Shown here piece after piece: positions 3,375 to 15,691 of a DNA stretch of 15,691 nt (position 1 is the first letter of the stretch; every line of letters starts with the position of its first letter). A program made the position numbers and the translations under genes. Source of the stretch: Bacteroidota bacterium (GTDB taxonomy: Bacteria; Bacteroidota; Bacteroidia; J057). The notes under the pieces are model-generated. The model worked only from the letters and a program-made list of their open reading frames with translations. It was not told where the DNA came from and ran no database searches. Location: the NCBI GenBank assembly GCA_039024295.1, contig JBCDIQ010000100.1, forward strand, positions 1 through 15,691, given 5' to 3'.

Positions 3375-3872
3375 TTAATGCTTGGTTAATTCCTTTTGGC
3401 TCTGGTGAAAGTTGACCATGATCCGGGTGTGCTTCATGCCGCTGTTCATTTTGCTGGAAACCTTCATAAGGGCTTTTTTTACTTCCATGTAGGCAATCTC
3501 GGGATCCTCGTAGGTATCAACGAATTCGTCTTCAATGACCTGGGCATTTCGGTTGGAATACTCATAGAAGCCCCAACTGAATCCGACCACCAAGGCGACT
3601 GCCGCGGCAGCCCTTCCAAGCCAAGCGGAATTCAGCCTTCGAACGGGATTGGGTTCCTTAATCTTGGCCATGAACTGCTGGTCAAATTCATCTCCAAGGC
3701 TAACCTCTGAACGTTCGGCATCCAGAAATCCTGCATATGCCCTTAACGGTTCCAGTTCGGGAGAAAGGTTTTCGGCATCCCGTACATATTCAAGCAGCAT
3801 CTGCTCTTCCCGATCGGTACAGGTACCTTTCCAGTATTTTTGGGCCAGTTGATGTAAAGTTTCAGGATTCAT
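3375..3872 (-). CDS. Putative anti-sigma factor, 165 aa, single-pass membrane protein
   Basis: It lies immediately downstream of the ECF sigma gene and overlaps it by 11 bp. It has one hydrophobic TM segment (AWLGRAAAAVALVVGFSWGFY) and a charged N-terminal cytoplasmic domain. This layout is typical of small anti-sigma partners. Confidence 0.6.
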   Translation of the reverse strand: MNPETLHQLAQKYWKGTCTDREEQMLLEYVRDAENLSPELEPLRAYAGFLDAERSEVSLGDEFDQQFMAKIKEPNPVRRLNSAWLGRAAAAVALVVGFSWGFYEYSNRNAQVIEDEFVDTYEDPEIAYMEVKKALMKVSSKMNSGMKHTRIMVNFHQSQKELTKH

Positions 3873-4374
3873 GACGATACTGATCTAAGAGGTATTTTTT
3901 TATGCGGGTCCGAGCACGGTGCAGCAGCACTTTGACATGGTTGACTTCGAGCTGGAGCAGTTCAGCTATTTCTTTGTAGCTGTACTGCTCCACATCCCGA
4001 AGCTGGATTACGGCACGCTGTTGTTCCGGCAAGGTGGCAATGACTGCCCGAACCTGCTTCAGGGTTTCACGGGCTACCGTTTGCCTCAAGGGTCCGGCTT
4101 CATGGGTGGGCAGATCAACTTGCTCATCTACCTGAACATAATGCCGGCCATGCTTGCGCAGTTTGTCTAAAGAACGGTTTCTGGTAAGGGTCATACACCA
4201 GGCTTCCGGGTTTTGAATACCACTGTCTGGCTTTTGTAAGTTTTCCCAGGCTTTCAACAGTACGTCCTGCACGACATCCATTGCATCTGCCTGATTCCCC
4301 AAGAAGGTCATGGCAAATCGAAAAAGACGATCTTTAAGGGGTAATATGTGCTGCTGAAACTCTTCTGCCGTCAT
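3862..4374 (-). CDS. RNA polymerase ECF-type sigma-70 factor. The most plausible start is MTAEEFQQ at 4374. The longest ORF extends to 4446.
   Basis: Region 2 reads LFRFAMTFLGNQADAMDVVQDVLLKAWENL. Region 4 is a helix-turn-helix, AVIQLRDVEQYSYKEIAELLQLEVNHVKVLLHRARTRIKK. The 24-codon N-terminal extension (MEISLSATRIEPNIASNQLSALPA) has no counterpart in typical ECF sigma factors, so the internal Met was chosen. Confidence 0.85.
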   Translation of the reverse strand: MTAEEFQQHILPLKDRLFRFAMTFLGNQADAMDVVQDVLLKAWENLQKPDSGIQNPEAWCMTLTRNRSLDKLRKHGRHYVQVDEQVDLPTHEAGPLRQTVARETLKQVRAVIATLPEQQRAVIQLRDVEQYSYKEIAELLQLEVNHVKVLLHRARTRIKKYLLDQYRHES

Positions 4375-4459
4375 GGCTGGTAAAGCCGAAAGTTGATTCG
4401 AAGCAATATTGGGTTCTATTCGGGTTGCAGACAAGCTAATTTCCATACCAATAACTCTC

Positions 4460-5221
4460 CTACTGGATGGTTACGCGCTTCTTGATGCTGACCTTATCAT
4501 TTTCAAGTGAAATGATGTACATACCTGTTGCAAGGCCATGGGTAGAGATGGACCGCGAAGTACTTTCAAGTGAATAACTGCGGATGACTTCTCCTTTCAT
4601 CGTTATCAATTTTGCTGTGCCCCCAATCAGGCTTTCAGGTACGTCTACTGTAACTTTATTGCCAGCAGTGGTAGGATTAGGGTATACTTTGACTTTATCA
4701 ATTCCGCTTTCATTGAGTTTCTTCATCTGGGCATACTCGTCCGACTTGATAAAACGAGCCACTTTAAAAATCTGATTTAAGCGCATGTCACCAGACAAGG
4801 ACATTAAAATAAACCCTGTACCCCCCATTCCCACCATCACCAATTCTTTCACGATACCGTTGTTTTCATTGATGTAAAAGCCATACGTCTCCTCATCGTC
4901 TTTGACGCTCATAAGCTCTTCAAACTCTGGCTGAATTTTCTTTAACACAGCTTCATAGTCAGCAACAGGACGCTTCTCTTCCTTCTTTACAATCAAGTCA
5001 AGCGCTTTAATCGTGCTTAGAAAGTCACGCAACTCTTCCAAATCTGCATTTTCTTCTTCCACTTCAAGATAAGCAGCCATCTCGAACATCTTTTTAGGCA
5101 AATGGGCATAAACCACATCTTCCTGGTCTAGGTATTCTGGAAAGTGGTGTTCGATCACATTCTGACCAAAGGCAAACTGACATGCCAACAGGGCGATAAA
5201 GGTAATTGCTAAGGGTTTCAT
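4460..5221 (-). CDS. DUF4252-like domain protein fused to a T9SS C-terminal sorting domain. The start is at 5221 (MKPLAITFIALLACQFAFGQ). The longest ORF extends to 5284.
   Basis: A signal peptide begins at the internal Met. The central region is homologous to the 2838-3359 DUF4252 protein. The C-terminal ~80 aa (KVKVYPNPTTAGNKVTVDV...GMYIISLENDKVSIKKRVTIQ) carries the YPNP hallmark of Por/T9SS secretion tails. Confidence 0.7.
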   Translation of the reverse strand: MKPLAITFIALLACQFAFGQNVIEHHFPEYLDQEDVVYAHLPKKMFEMAAYLEVEEENADLEELRDFLSTIKALDLIVKKEEKRPVADYEAVLKKIQPEFEELMSVKDDEETYGFYINENNGIVKELVMVGMGGTGFILMSLSGDMRLNQIFKVARFIKSDEYAQMKKLNESGIDKVKVYPNPTTAGNKVTVDVPESLIGGTAKLITMKGEVIRSYSLESTSRSISTHGLATGMYIISLENDKVSIKKRVTIQ

Positions 5222-5274
5222 TTCGTTGAAATTAAATGATGGAAAGTAACCGATCCTTATCGGTTCGACAGCAA

Positions 5275-5299
5275 GACGAACCACGCGGCTATATGTTAC
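5275..5299 (-). promoter_or_regulatory. Candidate ECF-type promoter for the DUF4252/sigma operon (- strand), reading GTAAC, 16 nt, CGTC
   Basis: The - strand reads tGTAACatatagccgcgtggttCGTCtt. An AAC -35 and CGTC -10 with a 16-nt spacer match the general ECF promoter architecture. It lies about 55-80 nt upstream of the 5221 start. It was found by pattern only. Confidence 0.25.
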
Positions 5300-5333
5300 A
5301 GCTCCCTCAAAAAAATTACAGGATTACTTCTTT

Positions 5334-5668
5334 GTACCGCCGTTTTCCGAACGACGGGGAGGACCGGACACTCGGTAATATCCTACAGATAGAATCTGGA
5401 GGTACAAGTACGTACCGCCGTTTTCCGAACGGCGTAGAAGACCAAATACCCGGTAATACCCTCCAGACAGAGTCTGGAGGTACAAGTTCATACCGCTGTT
5501 GCCCGAACGGCGGGGAGGACCGGACACTCGGTAATATCCTACAGATAGAATCTGGAGGTACAAGTACGTACCGCCGTTTTCCGAACGGCGTAGAGGACCG
5601 GATACCCGGTAATATCCTCCAGACAGAATCTGGAGGTACAAGTTCGTACCGCCGTTTTCCGAACGGCG
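5334..5668. repeat. Tandem array of a 78-bp unit, four full copies plus a 23-bp partial. Two alternating unit variants (A, B, A, B) make a 156-bp higher-order period. Each unit carries two hairpin-forming inverted repeats.
   Basis: Unit starts (GTACCGCCG) fall at 5334, 5412, 5490, 5568 and 5646, exactly 78 bp apart. Hairpin 1 is CCGCCGTT-ttccg-AACGGCGG. Hairpin 2 is CCTCCAGAC-aga-GTCTGGAGG in the B variant and CCTACAGAT-aga-ATCTGGAGG in the A variant. The array is in the intergenic region between 5221 and 5704. All frames stay open because 78 is a multiple of 3. Confidence 0.9.
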
Positions 5669-5703
5669 GGGAAAAAGTAAATACAACAAAAGGGGGCTTC
5701 TCC

Positions 5704-6906
5704 TTAGAATAACGACAATTGATTATCCTCCGGCGGCTTGGGACGTCTTTCCACGGTCCGTCCACCATATTTCCAGGAATCCCTGTTTTCTTTTTCCAGT
5801 ACTTCCTCCAAGGTGCTGGTCTGTTGATCGGTTTCCTCCCGTTTTTGTGCCAATTGAGTCAATTTCTGGATCGCCTGCTGTTTGTCCGTTTCCCCAATCT
5901 TGGCCCTGTCAACTGCCTTTCGCAAGGTAGTGATCGTTTCGTCATACACTTTGGTCGGAACTGGGAACGGCCTGCCTCCTTTGCCGCCATGCGCAAACGC
6001 AAACCGCGCCGGGTCCGAAAACCGTGAAGGCGTTCCGTGAATAACTTCGCTTACCAACGTGAGGGACTGGAGGGTTCTCGGACCAAGTCCTTTTAGCAGG
6101 AGCAGTTCTTCAAAATTTTCCGTTTGCTGGTCCTGAGCAAGTCCAATGATGCTGTGCAGGCGTTTAAAATCCACGTCCTTCGGACGAATGCCATATTGCT
6201 GGGGCACCAATAGCTTGGGCACTTCTTTGAGCAGCTTATCCGGATTTTCTCCGGTGATGTCGATGATGCCTGCACGGGTCTCCTTTGCTTTTCCTGAAAC
6301 CAGATTTATAATCTCTCCCTGGGAAGGACCACAAACTGCGGCGTGAGGTTCGTTCACAAAGGATTCCACCAGTTCGGAATGCCAATGGTAACGCCGAGCA
6401 CTTTTGTCATCGGGTTTCATTCCCTGCTGAATGACCGTCCAATCACCTTTATCACTCACCAGAAAGTTGTGCAGATATAATTGGTACCCATCCTGGACGG
6501 CAGCGTTGTCTACCTTTGCCGTGAGTTTGCTATTCCGCACAAGTGCATCAGCGTCCAACCCTGTTGCATCCCCAATTCTCAATAACTCATGAGGCGTTTG
6601 CAGGGACTGTTTTCCTTTTCCTCCACAGATATACAAGCCCAATTCTTTCGAATGAGGAGAGATAGATTCCTTCAACGCACGCATCACAGCCGTGGTCACA
6701 CCGGATGAATTCCAATCCATGCCGATGACTGCGCCGAAGCTCTGAAACCAAAAGGGGTCCGACATCCGCGACAAAAAGCCTGCATGGCCATACTCAGTGA
6801 GGATTGCCTCCACAATGGCAAGGCTCAGCTTCCGCATCCGGTCAAAGAGCCAGTAGGGAATGCCTCCTCCCATGAGGGTAAGGTCTGCCGAGCCTGCGTG
6901 TTTCAT
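5704..6906 (-). CDS. DUF763 family protein, 400 aa, conserved protein of unknown function
   Basis: The N-terminus MKHAGSADLTLMGGGIPYWLFDRMRKLSLAIVEAILTEYGHAGFLSRMSDPFWFQSFGAVIGMDWNSSGVTTAV matches my recollection of the conserved DUF763 N-terminal block. This is recognition from memory, not a search. It is transcribed divergently from the glycosyltransferase gene. Confidence 0.65.
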   Translation of the reverse strand: MKHAGSADLTLMGGGIPYWLFDRMRKLSLAIVEAILTEYGHAGFLSRMSDPFWFQSFGAVIGMDWNSSGVTTAVMRALKESISPHSKELGLYICGGKGKQSLQTPHELLRIGDATGLDADALVRNSKLTAKVDNAAVQDGYQLYLHNFLVSDKGDWTVIQQGMKPDDKSARRYHWHSELVESFVNEPHAAVCGPSQGEIINLVSGKAKETRAGIIDITGENPDKLLKEVPKLLVPQQYGIRPKDVDFKRLHSIIGLAQDQQTENFEELLLLKGLGPRTLQSLTLVSEVIHGTPSRFSDPARFAFAHGGKGGRPFPVPTKVYDETITTLRKAVDRAKIGETDKQQAIQKLTQLAQKREETDQQTSTLEEVLEKENRDSWKYGGRTVERRPKPPEDNQLSLF

Positions 6907-7020
6907 GTTACCAGGTTGCGATTATTAGGAGGTGAACAGGTTAATGAATTAACCCAAATTAACTTAAATTGATTCGCGTTAAGTGATTTTTCTGGCCGGG
7001 TGCATGTGTGAATCACCTCT

Positions 7021-8502
7021 ATGAAACGAATTCCCACACTAATTCTCTTCTTCGCCACCATTAAGCTGGTGGTCCAATTACTGGGCAATCGCAATTATGG
7101 GTTTCATCGAGATGAACTACTCCACCTCTCCGTGGGTGAGCATCTCGACTGGGGGTTCATGGAGTTTCCGCCTGGTATCGCCTTCCTGGGAAAACTATCT
7201 CATGTCCTTTTTGATGCCTCATTGATGGGCACCCGCCTATTTCCCACGATTGCAGGCGTATTGATCTTGATCCTGTGCTGCCAAATGGCACTGGCATTGG
7301 GGGGTAAATACAGAAGTGTGTTATTAGCCGCGATGTGCATCCTGGCGTTTCTCCCCTTTTATCGAAATCATACCCTGTTCCAGCCGGTGGCCTTTGACCA
7401 ACTCTGGTGGACCCTCGGGTTTTACCTACTCATCAGGTATGTCAATTCCGAAAAACCTGTGTTTTTACTTTTGACAGGATTGGTTCTGGGCCTGGGATTG
7501 ATGACCAAGTACACCATGCTGGTGTGGGCCTTCGGGATTTTCATAGGTCTGCTTTTCCCTCCAACAAGAAAAGTGTTCCGATCCCCCTGGCTGTATGCAG
7601 GAGGAATCCTCGCTTTGGTGATCTGGCTCCCCAACCTCCTGTGGCAGTGGGAACATGAATTTCCTTTATTCCGTCATTTACAGGCCTTGCAAACCGGGCA
7701 GGAAGGAAGTAGCCCGCAAGTCGATTTCATGCTAAACCAATTGATCCTGCCGGCAACCTTTGTAGTGAGCGTGATCGGAGCAGGTGCCTTACTGAGTTGG
7801 CAAAAGTACCGATCTCTCGGAGTTGCGGCCCTGATCATCTTTTTTACCCTGCTGATGCTTGGTGCTAAGTCTTATTATGTGTTTGCCGTTTATCCTGTAC
7901 TCTTTGCAGCAGGCAGCGTCAAACTTGAACAATGGATGATGCAGAAAAAGATGACCTGGACCTATCTGCTGGCAGCCTCTATTTTGGTTCCTTTTATTCC
8001 TTTCATTCCTCAATTGACCCCCATTTTACCCATTGAAACCTTTGTAAAGTATGAGGGATTGGAACCACAAAATTGCCGTTATGAGCTCACAAGTGATTAT
8101 GCGGATATGTTTGGATGGGAAGAACAGGCTCAGTTGGTAGATAGCGTATACCGTTCCCTTTCGCCGGAAGACCAAGTCAGCTGTGTGATTTGGGCAGAAA
8201 ATTATGGAGAGGCAGGCGCCATCAAAATTCTTGGTAAATCATATGGCCTACCCAATCCCATCAGTCGTCATGGAAGCTTTTGGAACTGGGGCTATGGAAA
8301 TCCGGACGCAAGTGTTTGGATCAGCCTCGGAAATGAGTTCCCTGCTGTAAATGATGTTTTTGAGGAAGTACTATTGATCAAAATGATTTACCATCCTTAC
8401 GCCATCGACGAGGAACATAACATTCCCCTTTACCTGTGCAGGAACCCCAAAGTGGATATCCCTAAATGGTGGCAGGAATATAAACCCTACGTATTTCAAT
8501 GA
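7021..8502 (+). CDS. GT39/ArnT-like (PMT_2) integral-membrane glycosyltransferase, 493 aa
   Basis: About 10-12 TM segments. The N-terminal motif YGFHRDELLHLSVGEHLDWGFMEFPPGIAFLGK resembles the DE..Y...A..L.WGY.D.PP signature of ArnT/PMT-family lipid-linked sugar transferases, with the catalytic DE dyad near the first periplasmic loop. Confidence 0.75.
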   Translation: MKRIPTLILFFATIKLVVQLLGNRNYGFHRDELLHLSVGEHLDWGFMEFPPGIAFLGKLSHVLFDASLMGTRLFPTIAGVLILILCCQMALALGGKYRSVLLAAMCILAFLPFYRNHTLFQPVAFDQLWWTLGFYLLIRYVNSEKPVFLLLTGLVLGLGLMTKYTMLVWAFGIFIGLLFPPTRKVFRSPWLYAGGILALVIWLPNLLWQWEHEFPLFRHLQALQTGQEGSSPQVDFMLNQLILPATFVVSVIGAGALLSWQKYRSLGVAALIIFFTLLMLGAKSYYVFAVYPVLFAAGSVKLEQWMMQKKMTWTYLLAASILVPFIPFIPQLTPILPIETFVKYEGLEPQNCRYELTSDYADMFGWEEQAQLVDSVYRSLSPEDQVSCVIWAENYGEAGAIKILGKSYGLPNPISRHGSFWNWGYGNPDASVWISLGNEFPAVNDVFEEVLLIKMIYHPYAIDEEHNIPLYLCRNPKVDIPKWWQEYKPYVFQ

Positions 8503-8661: not shown

Positions 8662-9306
8662 ATGAAAGAACTACTGGATGCTGCCGTATCTCCAGCAAAT
8701 ATTATCATCACCGGGCTACTCATCTTTATCCTGCTATATTGGATCACCGTCATCCTTGGCGTGATCGACCTGGATGCAGTCGACTTTGATGTGGACGTCG
8801 ATGTAGATGCAGACGTGGACATTGATGCCGATGTAGATGCCAGTGGTGTCAGTTGGTTTAACTCCGTCTTAGCATTTTTTAACCTGGGGCATGTACCGTT
8901 TATGGTGTTCATGACTTGTTGGATCGTGCCTGCCTGGGCCATTTGTATCATAGCCAATGACAAATTGGGCATTAGCAGTTTTGGGGTAGGATTAGGCATC
9001 ATGGCAGGGGGACTTTTTGCAAGTCTATTTATTGCCAAGATCGCGACACAACCTTTTGTGAGAATCTTTGCCAAAATTGACCAGGAAGCGAAGGAAAACC
9101 AGCGAATTAGAGGCAAGATATGCACGGTCACCATTGGTACGACTGCTACCTCAACGGGGCAAGCCACCATTAATACCTCCGGTGCGCCCCTGCTGATTAA
9201 TGTCCGAACTTCGGAAGGCGTAGAAATGCAAAAAGGAGACACCGGACTTGTACTTGAACTTATCGATAACCAGAATATTTACCTCATAGAACCCTTTAAT
9301 GATTAA
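8662..9306 (+). CDS. NfeD-like (YqiJ-type) membrane protein, 214 aa, flotillin-associated
   Basis: N-terminal TM helices, an acidic DVD-repeat loop, further TM helices, and a C-terminal beta-rich soluble domain (ICTVTIGTTATSTGQATINTSGAPLLINV...GDTGLVLELIDNQNIYLIEP) typical of the NfeD OB-fold. It ends 3 bp before the flotillin start. Confidence 0.75.
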   Translation: MKELLDAAVSPANIIITGLLIFILLYWITVILGVIDLDAVDFDVDVDVDADVDIDADVDASGVSWFNSVLAFFNLGHVPFMVFMTCWIVPAWAICIIANDKLGISSFGVGLGIMAGGLFASLFIAKIATQPFVRIFAKIDQEAKENQRIRGKICTVTIGTTATSTGQATINTSGAPLLINVRTSEGVEMQKGDTGLVLELIDNQNIYLIEPFND

Positions 9307-9309
9307 TCC

Positions 9310-11478
9310 ATGGGAGAATACATTGTACTTGTCATGTTGATTTCTGCTGTTGTCCTAGTGTTAGGATTAATAGTACTGTTCATTCGAATGTACCGGAAGG
9401 CGGTACAAGGTGAAGCCTTGGTGCGAACTGGATTGGGCGATGTCAAGGTATCTTTTTCAGGTCTATTAGTTATTCCAGTGGTCCACAAGCTGGAAGTGAT
9501 GGACATTACCCTCAAAACGCTGACCATTTCTCGCCTGGGGAAAGATGGCCTGATTTGTAAGGACAATATGCGAGCGGACATCAAGGTAAGCTTCTTTGTC
9601 CGGGTAAATAAAACCCGTGACGATGTGGTCCATGTGGCACAATCTATCGGCTGCCACCGGGCATCCGAAATTCAGGAGCTGGAAATGCTGTTTGATGCCA
9701 AATTTTCAGAAGCCCTGAAAACAGTAGGAAAGCATTTTGACTTTGTGGAGCTCTATAACTCCCGTGCAAATTTCAAGGAAAAGATCATCCAGGAAATTGG
9801 TACAGACCTCAACGGATATGTACTCGACGACTGCGCCATTGACTACGTGGAGCAAACTTCTCTCAGTGACTTGAATGAAAACAACATCTTGGATGCCCAG
9901 GGCATCAAGAAAATCATTGAGCTGACTGCTGCGGAAAAAGTAAAGTCCAACTTGATTAAGCGGGAGCAGGAAAAGACCATCAAAAAGCAAGATGTAGAAG
10001 CCCGAGAAACCATCCTCGAACTGGAACGCCAGTTGGCTGAAAAGGAAGAGCAACAAAAACGTGAAGTTGACAACATCAAAGCCCGCGAAGCGGCCGAAAT
10101 AGAAAAAGTCCGTCAGGAAAACGAACTCAAGGCGCAACAGGCGCGCATTGAAAAGGAAGAAGAACTGGGCATTGCAGAAGAGAATAAGCTGCGCCAGATC
10201 ATTGTCGCCAAAAAGAACAGGGAAAAAGCACAGGCAGTTGAAACGGAGCGCGTAGAGCAGGCACGGGCATTGGAAGAAACCGAGCGTGAGCGCGTGGTTG
10301 AATTGGCTCAAATCGACAAGGAAAAAATCTTGGAAGTAGAACGCAGGAACATCCAGGAAGTGATCCGCGAGCGGGTAACGGTTGAAAAAGCTACCGTAGA
10401 GGAAGAAGAGAAGATCAAGGATACCCGAGCCACTGCCGAGGCAGAGCGGAATAAGCTGGTGGCCATTACTGTAGCTGAGCAAAAAGCCCAGGAAGCCCTG
10501 GTGCAGGAAATCAAAATGGCAGAAGCTGCCAAGCAGGCATCTGAAGAGCTGGCGAAAAAAGCTTTGATTGATGCAGAAGCGGAACAAGCTGCCGCAGTTC
10601 ACAAGGCTGAAGCCATGAAAACCCTGGCAGAAGCAGAGGCGGCACAGAAAGCAGCTATCGGTATGTCCGAGGCACAAGTGATGTCTGCGAAAGCAGAAGC
10701 CCGTGAAAAAGAAGGAGAAGCCGAGGCATCTGTAATTGAAATGCAGTCTGAGGCAGAAGCCAAAGGCATCAAGATGAAAGCCGCGGCACAGGCCGAAGCT
10801 GACGAGAAGCTTGGTATCGTAGCTGCCAAGGTTGCCCTGGAGCAAGGGAAGGCCGAAGCGGAAGTGATCGAAATACAAGCGCAGGCCAATGAGAAACAAG
10901 GGTTGGTAGAAGCCCGTGTGATCACGGCCAAGCTCAAAGCCGATGCCGATGGCATCACCGAAAAGGCAGCGGCCATGAAGGCCCTCGATGGCCCTGGAAT
11001 GGAGCACGAAGAGTTCAAACTTCGTCTGGAAAAAGCGCGTGAGGTAGAACTTGCCCAGATTGAGGTGAACAAATCCATCGCAATGGCACAGGCTGAGGTA
11101 CTCGCCGAAGCCATGAAGTCAGCCAACATTGACATCATCGGTGGAGAGTCTGCCTTCTTTAAGCAAATTACAGGGGCAGTGGCCAACGGTAAATCCGTGG
11201 ATGGCTTGGTGAACGGCAGCCATGTGCTTTCTGACGTCAAGCGTGCCTTCCTGGACAATGGCGGAGGAGATTCCTTCAAAGAGAATATCTCTCAACTGAT
11301 CCGGTCGCTGAATGTCTCTTCCGAGGACATCAAGAACCTGTCAATCTCTGCCTTGCTGTATAAGTTGCTTAACAGCACCCAGGAAGACCACCTCAAGCGG
11401 AACTTGCGCCAATTACTTGGTGTAGCTGAAGCCAGCGGCCTACAGGGAGAGACCTTACACTCCCTCGGTATTAAGTAA
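9310..11478 (+). CDS. Flotillin family protein, 722 aa, with an SPFH/band-7 domain
   Basis: N-terminal TM anchor, then an SPFH domain (about 30-210 aa). A long A/E/K-rich coiled-coil region follows (EA-repeat flotillin domain), then the conserved flotillin C-terminus. It is paired with the NfeD gene as in yqiJ-yqiK and yuaF-floT operons. Confidence 0.85.
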   Translation: MGEYIVLVMLISAVVLVLGLIVLFIRMYRKAVQGEALVRTGLGDVKVSFSGLLVIPVVHKLEVMDITLKTLTISRLGKDGLICKDNMRADIKVSFFVRVNKTRDDVVHVAQSIGCHRASEIQELEMLFDAKFSEALKTVGKHFDFVELYNSRANFKEKIIQEIGTDLNGYVLDDCAIDYVEQTSLSDLNENNILDAQGIKKIIELTAAEKVKSNLIKREQEKTIKKQDVEARETILELERQLAEKEEQQKREVDNIKAREAAEIEKVRQENELKAQQARIEKEEELGIAEENKLRQIIVAKKNREKAQAVETERVEQARALEETERERVVELAQIDKEKILEVERRNIQEVIRERVTVEKATVEEEEKIKDTRATAEAERNKLVAITVAEQKAQEALVQEIKMAEAAKQASEELAKKALIDAEAEQAAAVHKAEAMKTLAEAEAAQKAAIGMSEAQVMSAKAEAREKEGEAEASVIEMQSEAEAKGIKMKAAAQAEADEKLGIVAAKVALEQGKAEAEVIEIQAQANEKQGLVEARVITAKLKADADGITEKAAAMKALDGPGMEHEEFKLRLEKAREVELAQIEVNKSIAMAQAEVLAEAMKSANIDIIGGESAFFKQITGAVANGKSVDGLVNGSHVLSDVKRAFLDNGGGDSFKENISQLIRSLNVSSEDIKNLSISALLYKLLNSTQEDHLKRNLRQLLGVAEASGLQGETLHSLGIK

Positions 11479-11526
11479 AGAATCTATCAGGGGTCAGGCC
11501 CTGCTCTGGCCCCCATTCTTATCCTT

Positions 11527-11543
11527 CACCTTCGTACAAGGTG
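11527..11543 (+). other. Short perfect hairpin CACCTT-cgtac-AAGGTG between the flotillin gene and the giant ORF. It has no following U-tract.
   Basis: A 6-bp stem with a 5-nt loop, read directly from the sequence. It is followed by aaaattcaacttt rather than a T-run, so it is unlikely to be an efficient intrinsic terminator. Confidence 0.2.
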
Positions 11544-11584
11544 AAAATTCAACTTTGAGTTAGCATACCATCTAATATATCCGA

Positions 11585-14500
11585 ATGGCAGCGCCTACTG
11601 CATCAGAAATTCAACTGGAGGGGGGCACTTATGAGGTGTTGAAAAACCGTCTGGAGAAAAGTGCCAATCAACTTACCTCAGCCACCAAAAAGCTGGATGA
11701 GCGTCGGAAAGAAGTATTTGGCGGCATCGAAACCCGCCTGATTTCTGCTGAACGCATCACCACCGCTCATAACTGTGTGCCGCGGGACATGGTGCCCATC
11801 GGGGAGCAATTTATTTTTGGGTACAATGTCCACCTGGGCCTGAAAACGCATGTGGAACTGGAAGATGTGTTCAGCTTCCATGCCTACCGCGACCACCATT
11901 TCCCGATACTGGAAAAACCCCTGCTGCAAGACGAGCAGTTCATCTCGGACTTTGAGAAACTCTATAAATACTATAAAAACACCCAGTTTTCACGATTTGA
12001 CCGAAAAGGGCCGCACCTGTACATGGTGTTCCAAATCGGCAAGACCGCCAAAGAAATCAAAGCTTTCAAATGGCTGGTATCGGGAGATGGTTTGACCTAT
12101 TTGGATAACCGGAGCGACCACGAAGTTCGTCCGCCGGAGCAGTACGCCTTCCGGTGGAAACGCACCAACCGCGAAGCCCAACGACTGGGAGAATTCTCTC
12201 ATATATCGGTAGAGGATCAGGTATTCGTGGAGGTGTCTCGCGGTAGGCTGACCTTGAAAGTGGAGGACAATACCGATTCAGGTCAGGGAATCTTTGTGGA
12301 GGAGGTGGAGCAAGTTGAGCAAAGCCTGGACGATGTAGAGGTGCAATATTCCCTCATGGGGAACTTGGTGCTGCTCAAAATTAAGCCCTACCTGGAAAAG
12401 ACATATCGGTACTATGTCTTTAACCGGAAGCTCCAGGAGGCCCAAAACATTCCGGCCCTGGCGCAAAGCTGTATCCTCTTGCCAGAAGACCAGGGAATCA
12501 TGTTTCCCAACGGATATTATTTGCAAAATGGCGCCTACAAACTGTTTGACAGTGACCTGGGCGAAATGCGCTACCAGCGGATGATCCCCTCTCCCAATGG
12601 CGAGGACTACCTCTATATTTTTTATCAGCCTGATCACGGCATTTACCAACTGCTTCCCTATAACCTGATCAGCCAGCAGGTGGAAACGCCCATTATGTGT
12701 CATGGATACGCCATCTTTGATAACGGGGAGTTGTGCTTTTTCAATTCTGATGAGGAACCCAAAAAGCACCATGCCACCAAAATCTGGCAAACCCCTTTTA
12801 CCGGCCCTGATTTCCAATCCAGTGTACGCAGCGATTCCTACCTGTTTAAGATTGGCAATAAAGAACTGGTCCGGGCGCTTTCAGAATGCAACGAACTACT
12901 TACCCTGGTTGCGAAGGGAGAAAATTACGAGGGCCTATATGTAGACCTGCAAAAACTGGCTACCGACATCACGGACAGCTACCACTGGCTGGGACACGAG
13001 GAATCAGGCAACCTCCTGGAGCCCTTGAGCGATATTCGCCAGACCTCGGAGTTGGCCATTGAGGAGTATGAGAAGGTGGTCAGCATAAAAAAGAATACTA
13101 GCCAGCAACTGGAGGAGGTTACGGAGCGCATTACCTCCTTGCTGAATAAGATTAGCCGGGAATCACAGCCCAGCATAGAGAAGTTTGTAGCAAACCTGGC
13201 CAGCCTGCGGACCATGAGGGGGGAATTGGAAACCCTCAAGACCCTTCGCTACATTGACGAGGCCACGGTACAATCCTTTCAGGAAAAGCTTGCAGATGAA
13301 AACCAACGGTATGCAGAACGCTGTGTGGTATTCTTGCTGCGCGAAGATGCCCTGCGTCCTTATGAGAAACGAATCGAGGACCTGGAGCAGGAAATCATCG
13401 AGGTAAGTAAAGTCGTTGATGCCGATACCCTGGGGGTAAAAATTGCCCAGGTGTCGGAAGATTTAGAGATGCTCATTGAAATTGTGGGCAACCTCAAAAT
13501 TGCAGATGCCACCCAAACTACTCAGATCATTGACAATATTTCCCTGCTGTTTTCCCGGCTGAACCAGGGACGTGCGACCCTGAACAACCAACGGAGATCG
13601 CTCCTGCGAGTAGAGGGAGAAGCCGAATTTAATGCCCAAATAAAGCTAATCGAGCAAGGCCTGACCAACTTCCTCGACCTTTCGGATACGCCAGAAAAAT
13701 GCGACGAGTACCTTGCCAAGCTGATGGTACAGTTGGAGGAGTTGGAAGCTAAGTTTGTAGAGTTCGATGATTTCATTGAAAAAATCAGTGAAAAGCGGGA
13801 GCAGGTGTACAGCAGTTTTGACACCCGGAAGGTTTCCTTGATCGAGGCCAAAAACCGCAGGGCCAATTCCCTGCAGACTGCAGCGAACCGAATTTTGAGC
13901 GCGGCCAAAAACCGTACCCTGAGGATGAAATCCGAAGAAGAGGTGAATACCTATTTCACTTCTGATCTCATGGTGGAAAAGCTCCGCACCATTGTTGCGG
14001 ACTTGCAGGAGCTCGGAGACACCATCAAGGCCGATGACCTACAGGGAAAAATGAAGTCCCTCCGTGAGGATGCCCTTCGCCAACTGCGGGACAAAAACGA
14101 ACTGTTCGCCGACTCGGATCAAGTCATCAAATTTGGCAAATACCACTTCTCGGTGAATACCCAGCCCATGGAGGTTACGGTGGTTCGGCGAGAGGAGCAG
14201 TTGTGGTACCACCTCACAGGCACCAGCCTGTATGAGGCCATTCCGGAAGCACATATCGGTCCAGCCACGCCTATTTGGGAGCAGGAATTGGTATCAGAAA
14301 ATGCACAGGTATATCGCGCTGAATACCTCGCTTACCAATTGCTGAAAGCGGCAGATGCCCCCGATGTATCTGGCATTTCGGTAGACGGGCTGATCCAGCT
14401 TACGCCCAAACAGTTGGAAGCGCGGGTCCAGGAATTCATGGCCGTGCGCTACAATGAGGGGTATGTCAAAGGAATTCATGACCATGATGCAGCCAAGCTG

Positions 14501-15691
14501 CTGACCAGCTTGCTGATCTTTTTCCGGTCGGGGGACCTGCTCAAATATGCTGCTGATGCCCGCGCATTTGCCCTGTATTTCTGGGAATTTTGCCTGGAAG
14601 CGTCAAAACGAGAAGCCCTCGTCAACCAGATTACGGGCCTGAGCAGCATCCTTGACATATTTCCGGACTCCCGGGCCTACCACGAATTGATTGCCTCGCT
14701 TACGGAGCAAATAGCAGCGGTGCGTACAGGTGAGTTTGAGCGGACCTCTGCCACAGCAGCAGCAAATTACCTCTTCCACGAACTCAGCAATCCGCAAGAT
14801 TATTCCCTTTCGGAGAATGCGGCTGCCCTGGCCCAGGCATTTAATGACTTCTTGAAGCAACAAAAGGGCGAACAGAAATTCGCGCAGTCCCTGGAATTAT
14901 TGCCAGATGCCACGTCTCAATTTGCCCTGGTGGTCAAATGGCTCAGTGCCTTTGTGGCCCATACCCAGCAGGCGGATGACCGTCCGTTTATTCGGGAGGC
15001 GGCCTTCCACCTTACCGGCAAAGACCTTGCTTTCCACACCCTTAACCTGCCGATGATTGAAGAAATCGGCGGACTGCTGGGGACACATGGCGTCATCCAC
15101 GATGGGAATTACCACATGAACTTCAACGAGTTCCTTTCCAAGCTGGACCATTTTGAGCAGGCGGTGGTGCCCGCTTATCAGCAGTTCCAGGAAGGCAAAC
15201 GCAAGCTGGTGGCTGATTTCTCAACCGAGTTGCGCATCTCCGAATTCCAACCTCGGGTGATGGCTTCCTTTGTCAGGAATAAACTCATCAATGATGTGTA
15301 CCTGCCATTGATCGGAGCCAACCTTGCCAAGCAAATCGGGGAAGTAGGCGAAGGCAAACGAACCGATCTCATGGGCATGCTGTTGTTGGTATCTCCTCCA
15401 GGATACGGTAAGACTACCCTCATGGAATACATCGCCAACAGGCTGGGGCTTATTTTCATGAAAATAAATGGCCCCGCCCTTGGGCATGAGCTACGCTCCC
15501 TCGACCCAGCAGACGCGCCCAATGCTGCCGCCAGAGAGGAGGTCAACAAGCTCAACCTGTCTTTTGAGATGGGAGACAATGTGATGATCTACCTGGACGA
15601 CATCCAGCATTGCCACCCGGAGTTTTTGCAGAAGTTTATCTCCTTGTGTGATGCCCAGCGTAAAATTGAGGGGGTGTACAAAGGACAAACC
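11585..15691 (+). CDS. Large multidomain protein with a C-terminal AAA+ ATPase domain. The CDS is partial, with at least 1369 aa in-window and the 3' end beyond the window. It is not present in the supplied ORF track.
   Basis: Manual translation starts at ATG 11585, which is preceded by an in-frame TAA at 11573-11575. The frame stays open for 4107 nt, exactly 1369 codons, to the last base of the window. The product begins MAAPTASEIQLEGGTYEVLKNRLEKS and ends at ...KIEGVYKGQT. The middle is strongly coiled-coil (about aa 470-860). The AAA P-loop LLLVSPPGYGKTTLMEYIANRLG has its Lys at codon 1276 (nt 15410-15412). The Walker B VMIYLDDIQHCHPEFLQKFISLCDAQRKIEGV (nt 15581 onward) resembles MoxR/AAA_5-type ATPases. 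The track shows only short ORFs in the other frames across these 4.1 kb. Confidence 0.85.
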   Translation, partial: MAAPTASEIQLEGGTYEVLKNRLEKSANQLTSATKKLDERRKEVFGGIETRLISAERITTAHNCVPRDMVPIGEQFIFGYNVHLGLKTHVELEDVFSFHAYRDHHFPILEKPLLQDEQFISDFEKLYKYYKNTQFSRFDRKGPHLYMVFQIGKTAKEIKAFKWLVSGDGLTYLDNRSDHEVRPPEQYAFRWKRTNREAQRLGEFSHISVEDQVFVEVSRGRLTLKVEDNTDSGQGIFVEEVEQVEQSLDDVEVQYSLMGNLVLLKIKPYLEKTYRYYVFNRKLQEAQNIPALAQSCILLPEDQGIMFPNGYYLQNGAYKLFDSDLGEMRYQRMIPSPNGEDYLYIFYQPDHGIYQLLPYNLISQQVETPIMCHGYAIFDNGELCFFNSDEEPKKHHATKIWQTPFTGPDFQSSVRSDSYLFKIGNKELVRALSECNELLTLVAKGENYEGLYVDLQKLATDITDSYHWLGHEESGNLLEPLSDIRQTSELAIEEYEKVVSIKKNTSQQLEEVTERITSLLNKISRESQPSIEKFVANLASLRTMRGELETLKTLRYIDEATVQSFQEKLADENQRYAERCVVFLLREDALRPYEKRIEDLEQEIIEVSKVVDADTLGVKIAQVSEDLEMLIEIVGNLKIADATQTTQIIDNISLLFSRLNQGRATLNNQRRSLLRVEGEAEFNAQIKLIEQGLTNFLDLSDTPEKCDEYLAKLMVQLEELEAKFVEFDDFIEKISEKREQVYSSFDTRKVSLIEAKNRRANSLQTAANRILSAAKNRTLRMKSEEEVNTYFTSDLMVEKLRTIVADLQELGDTIKADDLQGKMKSLREDALRQLRDKNELFADSDQVIKFGKYHFSVNTQPMEVTVVRREEQLWYHLTGTSLYEAIPEAHIGPATPIWEQELVSENAQVYRAEYLAYQLLKAADAPDVSGISVDGLIQLTPKQLEARVQEFMAVRYNEGYVKGIHDHDAAKLLTSLLIFFRSGDLLKYAADARAFALYFWEFCLEASKREALVNQITGLSSILDIFPDSRAYHELIASLTEQIAAVRTGEFERTSATAAANYLFHELSNPQDYSLSENAAALAQAFNDFLKQQKGEQKFAQSLELLPDATSQFALVVKWLSAFVAHTQQADDRPFIREAAFHLTGKDLAFHTLNLPMIEEIGGLLGTHGVIHDGNYHMNFNEFLSKLDHFEQAVVPAYQQFQEGKRKLVADFSTELRISEFQPRVMASFVRNKLINDVYLPLIGANLAKQIGEVGEGKRTDLMGMLLLVSPPGYGKTTLMEYIANRLGLIFMKINGPALGHELRSLDPADAPNAAAREEVNKLNLSFEMGDNVMIYLDDIQHCHPEFLQKFISLCDAQRKIEGVYKGQT

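Follow-up and report, generated by a model that had tools for sequence, protein, structure and literature searches.

A 15,691-nt contig of a Bacteroidota metagenome-assembled genome (MAG; GenBank assembly GCA_039024295.1, contig JBCDIQ010000100.1), the whole of which is referred to here as the window, contains an intergenic tandem array of approximately 340 bp (positions 5334–5673) made of 78-bp units arranged head to tail, four of them complete and followed by a 28-bp partial fifth. We find that each unit is a quasi-dyad, in which two related palindromes, both with an 8-bp stem and a 5-nt loop, lie in opposite orientation, with GTA(C) before each and a small central hairpin between them. This inverted-doublet layout, which had gone unremarked in an earlier note on the same DNA, recalls the clusters of repetitive extragenic palindromes (REPs) known as bacterial interspersed mosaic elements (BIMEs). 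By analogy with the BIME-2 and REPIN architectures, the explanation we tentatively favor, and to which we give just under an even chance, is that the array is a non-coding, BIME-like hairpin cluster that acts as a passive 3′-end barrier or insulator.

The repeat structure of the array is regular. Tandem Repeats Finder reports 4.3 copies of a 78-bp period at 5334–5669 with 84% matches and 0% indels, together with a second period of 156 bp (2.2 copies, 92% matches), and comparison of the array with itself gives 94% identity at an offset of 156 and 81% identity at an offset of 78. The complete units occupy positions 5334–5411 (unit 1, variant A), 5412–5489 (unit 2, variant B), 5490–5567 (unit 3, variant A) and 5568–5645 (unit 4, variant B). 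Partial unit 5 (5646–5673), delimited by inverted-repeat and motif searches and by alignment, consists of GTA, a copy of the first palindrome and then GGGGA; it matches through this last motif, which places the right end of the array at approximately 5673, a few bases past the end given earlier. When the four complete units are aligned 17 columns are variable, with units 1 and 3 differing at five columns, units 2 and 4 likewise at five, and A–B pairs at 8–16. The earlier note had described copies spaced exactly 78 bp apart and, because two variants alternate, a true period of 156 bp that had been duplicated once; the absence of indels across the 4.3 copies and the 92–94% identity at the longer period bear out both statements. 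Thus a 78-bp unit was duplicated, its copies diverged to give A and B, and the A–B dimer was then duplicated once. In the first of these steps a single module would have doubled, with the two copies drifting to approximately 83–90% identity, and in the second the dimer would have doubled again, with the products now at 94% identity. Unequal recombination or slippage may have produced the doublings, or else a reaction of the type carried out by Y1 transposases (TnpAREP/RAYT), and the copies would subsequently have drifted without detectable constraint on pairing.

Because the source is a MAG contig, we considered whether the copy number or arrangement of the units could in part be an artefact of short-read metagenome assembly, with, for example, strain variants unrolled as tandem copies. 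An independent Logan assembly of run SRR22824304 (L030) contains 5296 nt identical to the window and ends inside unit 1, at window position 5402, which marks the repeat as a branching point of the assembly graph; a stop there is expected because the de Bruijn graph meets the repeat at that place. However, units 1 and 3 differ from each other at five columns, as do units 2 and 4, so the array is not one loop traversed twice, and the longest stretch common to both dimers, at approximately 84 nt, is within what large k-mers or read pairs can resolve. Moreover, the two assemblies agree exactly in the flank and over the first 69 nt of unit 1. We therefore regard an assembly artefact as quite improbable.

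Four kinds of palindrome make up the unit almost in its entirety. The first, H1, reads CCGCCGTT-TTCCG-AACGGCGG on the plus strand, with GTA directly before it, and is found at 5337–5357, 5415–5435, 5493–5513, 5571–5591 and 5649–5669. The second of the two larger palindromes, H3, is an inverted relative of H1 that reads GTA-CCTCCAGA-TTCTG-TCTGGAGG on the minus strand and CCTCCAGAC-AGA-GTCTGGAGG (9-N3-9) on the plus strand, and it is found at 5382–5402, 5460–5480, 5538–5558 and 5616–5636. Both are extragenic palindromes of 21 nt with stems of 8–9 bp, and a motif search that allowed up to three mismatches recovered H1 five times and H3 four times from the array, and neither of them from 200 shuffles. 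Between them, on the dyad axis of the unit, lies H2 (ACCGG-N4-CCGGT, or more generally ACCGG-N4-YCGGT; 5363–5376, 5441–5454, 5519–5532 and 5597–5610), 90% of whose cells are paired. Across each junction between units lies H4 (GGTAC-N6-GTACC, here GGTAC-AAGTAC-GTACC; 5401–5416, 5479–5494, 5557–5572 and 5635–5650), which includes three GTAC sites and was identified from folds and from a listing of the junctions. H2 and H4 had both been overlooked previously. Viewed in this way the array is a series of modules of approximately 72 bp, each consisting of H1, a 24-nt linker that contains H2, and H3, joined head to tail by AAGTAC. A scan for GC-rich perfect hairpins of at least 8 bp across the 15.7-kb window located all of them inside the array. 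The array also holds ten GTAC sites; since GTAC is not depleted in the rest of the window (48 sites observed, 60 expected), we dropped the idea that avoidance or clustering of a restriction site is involved.

The two hairpins that had been described in each unit, with stems of 8 bp and 9 bp, are present and exceed chance expectation, but some units have imperfect stems. In H1, the 8-bp CCGCCGTT/AACGGCGG stem is perfect in the partial fifth copy only: the outer pair is lost in the B units (C.T), unit 1 has an internal C.A and unit 3 a U.G. Similarly, the 9-bp CCTCCAGAC/GTCTGGAGG stem of H3 is perfect in unit 2 only, is reduced to 8 bp in unit 4, and has an A.G mismatch in mid-stem in both A units.

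The quasi-dyad character of the unit emerges when H1 on the plus strand is compared with H3 on the minus strand. The two have in common the GTA tag (3/3 bases), a stem length of 8, a loop length of 5, four of the five loop bases and four of the eight arm bases. Counted by eye, their consensus sequences are identical at 15/24 positions (13–14/24 in the best units), whereas in the same orientation H1 and H3 are identical at only 3–5/24. Eleven matches over 16 independent positions correspond to a binomial P of 0.0003–0.0016, uncorrected for the approximately six alignments considered. The same symmetry is apparent in the unit as a whole, where 42 of the 78 positions agree between the sequence and its reverse complement about an axis in the H2 loop, a value reached by 45 of 5000 shuffles.

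Pairing in the stems is likewise beyond chance and shows the palindromes to be real, with 90.9% of stem cells paired on the plus strand and 92.0% on the minus strand, compared with 27–52% when the pairing partners are slid by 1–3 columns. Taken whole, the array gives better folds than shuffled sequence on both strands (z = −5.6 and −5.1). Only the B-type units, however, are well formed. Their RNA folds have z scores between −3.6 and −4.8 (unit 2, −4.8 on the plus strand; unit 4, −3.8 and −3.6), save for unit 2 on the minus strand at −2.5, and their DNA folds have z scores between −5.4 and −6.6 (unit 2, −5.4 and −6.1; unit 4, −6.3 and −6.6). The A units, with z scores between −0.8 and −1.9, fold no better than shuffled sequence (unit 1, approximately −1; unit 3, −1.9 on the plus strand and −0.8 on the minus strand), and they carry the A.G mismatch in H3 and, in unit 1, additionally the C.A in H1.

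Whether selection has maintained this structure can be judged from the substitutions among the units. The earlier note had pointed to an apparent compensatory change in one stem as consistent with selection on structure, and had called the signal mixed. The change itself is present, in the loop-closing pair of H3, which is T-A in units 1 and 3 and C-G in unit 2, with unit 4 intermediate (C.A on the plus strand, U.G on the minus strand). It is the only pair changed on both sides, and with a shuffle mean of 1.0 and 382–390 of 500 shuffles reaching the observed value, it does not show such selection; the covariation score is no higher than that of shuffles on either strand. Nor are the stems spared: they make up approximately 60% of the unit and contain 10 of the 17 variable columns. 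G.U pairs left by transitions are somewhat more numerous on the minus strand (five) than on the plus strand (two), a difference that is not significant, and an attempt to assign the array to a strand on this basis was dropped. These data indicate that the palindromes were inherited through duplication and are now drifting, and they do not support an RNA fold kept by selection. They do not separate DNA palindromes from RNA hairpins.

A further reading is that the array is a structured non-coding or cis-regulatory RNA, tandemly reiterated and selected for its fold. The z scores of the whole array, the loop-closing pair that goes from T-A to C-G by way of a U.G intermediate on the minus strand, and the five wobble-compatible transitions on that strand versus two on the other are consistent with such an RNA. 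Set against them are the shuffle-level covariation, the lack of significance of the 5:2 strand bias, and the fact that half of the units fold like random sequence. A search of Rfam 15 yielded nothing at gathering thresholds over the window and nothing up to E = 10 in positions 5200–5800. ARAGORN found no tRNA or tmRNA. One minimum free energy fold closes GUACC/GGUAC around three arms to give a tRNA-like cloverleaf; we rejected this candidate on the ARAGORN result and on the geometry of its arms, which is wrong for a tRNA. A scan for sigma-70-like promoters in or beside the array was also negative, leaving no promoter- or terminator-like site in the individual units or at the flanks, and the collections searched contain no homologue and hence no evidence of conservation. 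We consider a structured RNA, which had been among the roles suggested for the array, very improbable.

The array is also non-coding. Three overlapping open reading frames (ORFs) run across it (5236–5712 on the plus strand; 5316–5768 and 5324–5689 on the minus strand), and it could be asked whether one of them encodes a protein with a 26-residue repeat. All three frames stay open because the period is divisible by 3. No Pfam family matched any of the three ORFs, and a search of 5.8 billion proteins with their concatenated translations turned up no relative. When the longest ORF, that on the plus strand, was used in a full HMMER scan against 1.84 billion representatives, eight weak matches were returned, all spurious repeat matches: the three sequences examined belong to unrelated repeat proteins, and the others to long proteins with 22–31% identity in several stretches. 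Of the 17 variable columns, 14, 12 and 12 change an amino acid in the three frames, without an excess at third codon positions, and the ORFs overlap the stop of the upstream gene, which encodes a DUF763 protein, and the promoter region on the other side. The original judgement that the region is not credibly coding, and that its ORFs are artefactual, therefore stands, and a coding repeat is extremely improbable. So does the judgement that the array is not a CRISPR locus. Both contain a regularly spaced palindromic repeat, but the units of the array abut one another with neither spacers nor a leader, and no cas genes or cas domains were found in the window.

Among the roles that had been put forward for the array, that of a REP-like element is the best anatomical fit, since the unit combines two related palindromes in inverse orientation, as BIME-2 clusters do; the array is known from one locus only, and membership is not established. 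BIME-2 clusters consist of multiple tandem REPs and inverted REPs of a different type, separated by short linkers (PMC3333891), and copies at one locus are well conserved, with a copy number that varies among strains (PMC3333891; PMC2817692). REP families have stems of 5–13 bp, mostly 6–9 bp; they frequently occur in clusters, and heterodimers of different palindromes are common (PMC3733652). Like the BIME-2 and atypical BIME clusters of Escherichia coli and other Proteobacteria, and like the REPINs of Pseudomonas, the array is extragenic and lies just downstream of a gene. As in BIME-2 and REPINs, its building blocks are short imperfect palindromes, rich in GC, each with a stem of 8 bp and a loop of 5 nt, and two differing but related inverse palindromes are separated by short linkers and repeated head to tail at a fixed period; H1 and H3 are extragenic imperfect palindromes of the kind that, at 20–40 nt, typifies REPs and BIMEs, and the alternation of REP and inverted REP in tandem that typifies BIME-2 is present as 4.3 modules at exactly 78 bp, with moderate significance. 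The copies at this one locus are well conserved, as BIME-2 copies are, and each palindrome, read in its own orientation, has an unpaired GTA-type tag at its 5′ foot, as in BIME-2 and REPINs. By these analogies the array is built like a BIME cluster and probably behaves like one, without being a proven member of the family.

Several observations weigh against a BIME-like assignment and the barrier function attached to it. The tetranucleotide at the foot of REPs is GTAG or CGTC, whereas the tag in the array is GTAC (ATAC in unit 3), and CGTC occurs in unit 1 only, through a point change; where GTAG tags are degenerate they vary at positions 2–3 and keep the final G (PMC3733652). The 15.7-kb window encodes no Y1 transposase (RAYT/TnpAREP); in Bacteroidetes, TnpAREPs of subclasses 2.4 and 2.6 are known, and the structures that flank them are repeated elsewhere in the genome (PMC6006769). 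The relatedness of H1 and H3 is only moderately significant (approximately P = 0.002–0.01). The hairpins of the A units, half of the complete units, are degraded, and therefore any structural role is not maintained in all copies. As to transcription signals, no hairpin followed by a T-run was found in or beside the array on either strand, the sole T-run (5310–5316, minus strand) lying 21 nt past the last hairpin, and GC skew is flat, with no bias of C over G and thus no evident Rho-type signal. Neither an intrinsic terminator (the earlier note had named a REP-like terminator among the possible roles) nor an evident Rho-utilisation signal can be claimed for the array. Finally, the array is without visible relatives. 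No further copies were detected in the other 15.3 kb of the contig by pattern search, blastn-short, nhmmer or hairpin scan. Among 185,579 species genomes, a species-representative set to which this MAG does not belong, the exact H1 20-mer occurs as nine chance singletons in unrelated phyla, none of them in Bacteroidota and none extending past the pattern.

Other searches gave the same result. Joint Genome Institute metagenome contigs, scanned once for the junction pattern and once for H3 together with its tag, produced zero matches; in viral contigs H3 produced zero matches and a degenerate H1 pattern 18 chance singletons; and blastn against plasmids and phages produced no match. The loci of the closest DUF763 proteins, and of the only two relatives of the DUF4252 protein encoded on the other side of the array, have other neighbors or short gaps with no similarity to the unit. 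In one of the related loci, L031, no such palindromes are present in the 213 nt available upstream of the operon. The question raised previously of whether the element is dispersed or specific to its locus can thus be answered for the contig and related loci, in which there is no second copy. The array appears to be lineage-specific, and an orphan among the collections searched. Unlike REPs and BIMEs, it is known from a single locus in 15.7 kb, with no copy in any searched collection, and it further differs from BIME-2 and REPINs in that its host is a Cytophagia-like Bacteroidota MAG and not a proteobacterium and in that its linker holds a third small hairpin.

Two other kinds of mobile or modular repeat deserve comparison. 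Miniature inverted-repeat transposable elements (MITEs) have terminal inverted repeats and a target-site duplication and occur in many dispersed copies. The array is flanked by no direct repeat (left, ...TACTTCTTT; right, GGAAAAAGTAAA...), and the ends of its units, GTACC...GGTAC, are inverted. The NIME arrays of Neisseria and the BOX elements of pneumococcus are modular intergenic arrays with units of 45–150 bp, strong hairpin potential and a variable copy number, and they are defined by many dispersed copies together with specific boundary repeats (dRS3 in the former; boxA and boxC in the latter). The array resembles them in its modular, intergenic, hairpin-rich units and has no known sequence similarity to them.

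The lack of relatives is what a purely local explanation would predict, namely that the array is a functionless minisatellite, in which replication slippage or unequal crossing-over doubled a palindrome-rich intergenic segment that is now drifting, with no dispersed family, enzyme or role. No other copy was found anywhere searched, the array is absent from related loci, the A units are degraded, and the stems have acquired substitutions as chance expects (10 of 17 columns) with no covariation beyond shuffles. Loci with a variable number of tandem repeats (VNTRs) are, like the array, head-to-tail repeats with a period of tens of base pairs, dimer periodicity and neutral-looking substitutions. 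However, in contrast to an ordinary VNTR, the units of the array are almost wholly palindromes, arranged as an inverted doublet. A local minisatellite leaves this near-total palindromic make-up unexplained, as it does the common geometry, loop and GTA tag of the inverted H1 and H3, and the approximately 6% divergence between the dimers implies long persistence of a sequence that is nevertheless recombinogenic. We regard this explanation as doubtful, if a serious prospect.

The genes on either side bear on what a BIME-like cluster might do at this site. All of the genes flanking the array are on the minus strand, in the order DUF763 gene, array, gene for a DUF4252 protein with a C-terminal Por sorting domain of the type IX secretion system, extracytoplasmic function (ECF) sigma factor gene, unassigned ORF and two more DUF4252 genes. 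The DUF763 gene (5704–6906; PF05559, E = 5.7e-128), the product of which is 100% identical to a protein of an NCBI MAG, ends 34 nt upstream, on the minus strand, of the first palindrome of the array; the closest DUF763 proteins elsewhere are 74–75% identical, and the named relatives are from Cytophagia-type genera. The DUF4252-Por gene (4460–5221, assigned with Pfam) is the first gene downstream, and the ECF sigma factor gene (3862–4446; Sigma70_r2 and Sigma70_r4_2) is in the same operon, the order of which is the same in L030 and L031. When the upstream region is aligned with that of L031, in which the first gene has 42% identity, TGTAACA-N16-GTCTT proves to be conserved (5273–5300, minus strand, in the window; approximately 113–142 in L031). 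This putative promoter lies 52 nt before the ATG (5221), and its −35 box is 33 nt from the end of the array. Its match to the common −35/−10 pattern of ECF promoters suggests that it is of the ECF type, and it is probably the autoregulated promoter of the operon. The location originally given for the array, with the stop of the DUF763 gene on one side and the promoter region upstream of the ECF-sigma operon on the other, is accordingly supported both by Pfam and by the promoter alignment. With 34 nt between the DUF763 stop and its start, and 33 nt between its end and the −35 box, the array lies within the DUF763 3′ region and outside the transcript of the ECF operon.

Proximity to this promoter also raises the possibility that the 8-N5-8 and 9-N3-9 palindromes are sites for a dimeric regulator and that the array serves as an operator controlling the ECF-sigma operon or the DUF763 gene. 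The palindromes are strand-symmetric, with both strands pairing equally well, and the array stops 33 nt short of the conserved ECF-type −35 box, on its upstream side. Yet L031 has the promoter motif, and the 213 nt of upstream sequence available there lack such palindromes; the sites closest to the promoter, in unit 1 (type A), are the most degraded; four or five repeats of two long GC-rich sites would be unusual for operators; and the sigma factor is the only DNA-binding regulator encoded next to the array. An operator array is, in our view, improbable.

For a BIME-like hairpin cluster, the position of the array suggests a possible role. Since the array lies between the DUF763 stop and the ECF-type −35 box, the sole obvious transcript through it would be the minus-strand DUF763 mRNA, at its 3′ end. 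REPs and BIMEs in enterobacteria are reported to block exonucleases and to attenuate read-through. By analogy, the row of GC-rich hairpins may impede 3′-to-5′ exonucleases on the DUF763 mRNA, and it may dampen read-through and so shield the autoregulated ECF-sigma operon from upstream transcription. At the DNA level the array may in addition bind nucleoid proteins or gyrase. It is equally possible that the array has no function at all. A more specific version of the BIME-like reading, to which we give an outside chance, would make the array one locus of an undescribed GTAC-tagged REP/BIME system, amplified by a Bacteroidetes-type TnpAREP (subclass 2.4 or 2.6) with a non-GTAG cleavage or recognition tetranucleotide and serving the cell as an insulator made of hairpins, with a housekeeping gene on one side and an autoregulated ECF-sigma operon on the other.

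If the array is indeed BIME-like, it would extend REP/BIME clusters with another foot tetranucleotide to a poorly sampled lineage of Bacteroidota and would provide a concrete case of such a cluster as a buffer before an ECF-sigma promoter; it would be relevant to the evolution of REPs and RAYTs and to 3′-end RNA stability in Bacteroidota, and would leave the general picture unchanged. If it is a local minisatellite only, its practical use would be as a length-polymorphic strain marker, and it would serve as a warning that repeats with a period divisible by 3 yield spurious ORFs. The novelty is modest: the array adds a new orphan to a familiar type of intergenic cluster of palindromic repeats.

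The locus is rearranged on both sides of the DUF763 gene. In the closest relatives (L010 and L011) an HhH-GPD gene overlaps the upstream end of the DUF763 gene, and the window, in which positions 6907–7020 separate the DUF763 gene from its next neighbor, is without that partner. Instead, a PMT_2 glycosyltransferase gene (7021–8502) is divergent from the DUF763 gene. Beyond it on the plus strand is a three-gene cluster (8662–15691) encoding a YqiJ_N-like membrane protein (8662–9306), a 722-aa protein without a Pfam match (9310–11478) and a protein of more than 1372 aa that runs off the contig end (11576–15691) and contains DUF3686 (“ATPase involved in DNA repair”), DUF7902 and a C-terminal AAA domain.

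Another intergenic insertion specific to the lineage is present at 2212–2346, between a DUF4252 gene and an ABC transporter gene, where the gap is 135 nt in the window versus 13 nt in L031. It contains heptamer-type repeats, GGTTTTAGGTGTT and GGGTTTTAGGCGTTAGGG (Tandem Repeats Finder rows at 2221–2285 and 2311–2336), as well as an inverted partner, CCCTAACACCTAAC, which can form a long imperfect hairpin. Perfect intergenic heptamer repeats also occur in relatives, as (GGGTATA)x11 followed by (TTACTAC)x4 in L033 (15115–15245) and as (GTCAGAG)x4 in L031 (7873–7900). Intergenic heptamer tandem repeats, which are reminiscent of the short tandemly repeated heptamers of cyanobacteria, may thus be a feature of this Bacteroidota clade. 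L033, a 546-kb contig, additionally has a perfect 144-bp tandem duplication (14789–15079; 2.0 copies, 100% identity) in or beside a MauE-like gene, which could be either a recent duplication or an assembly artefact.

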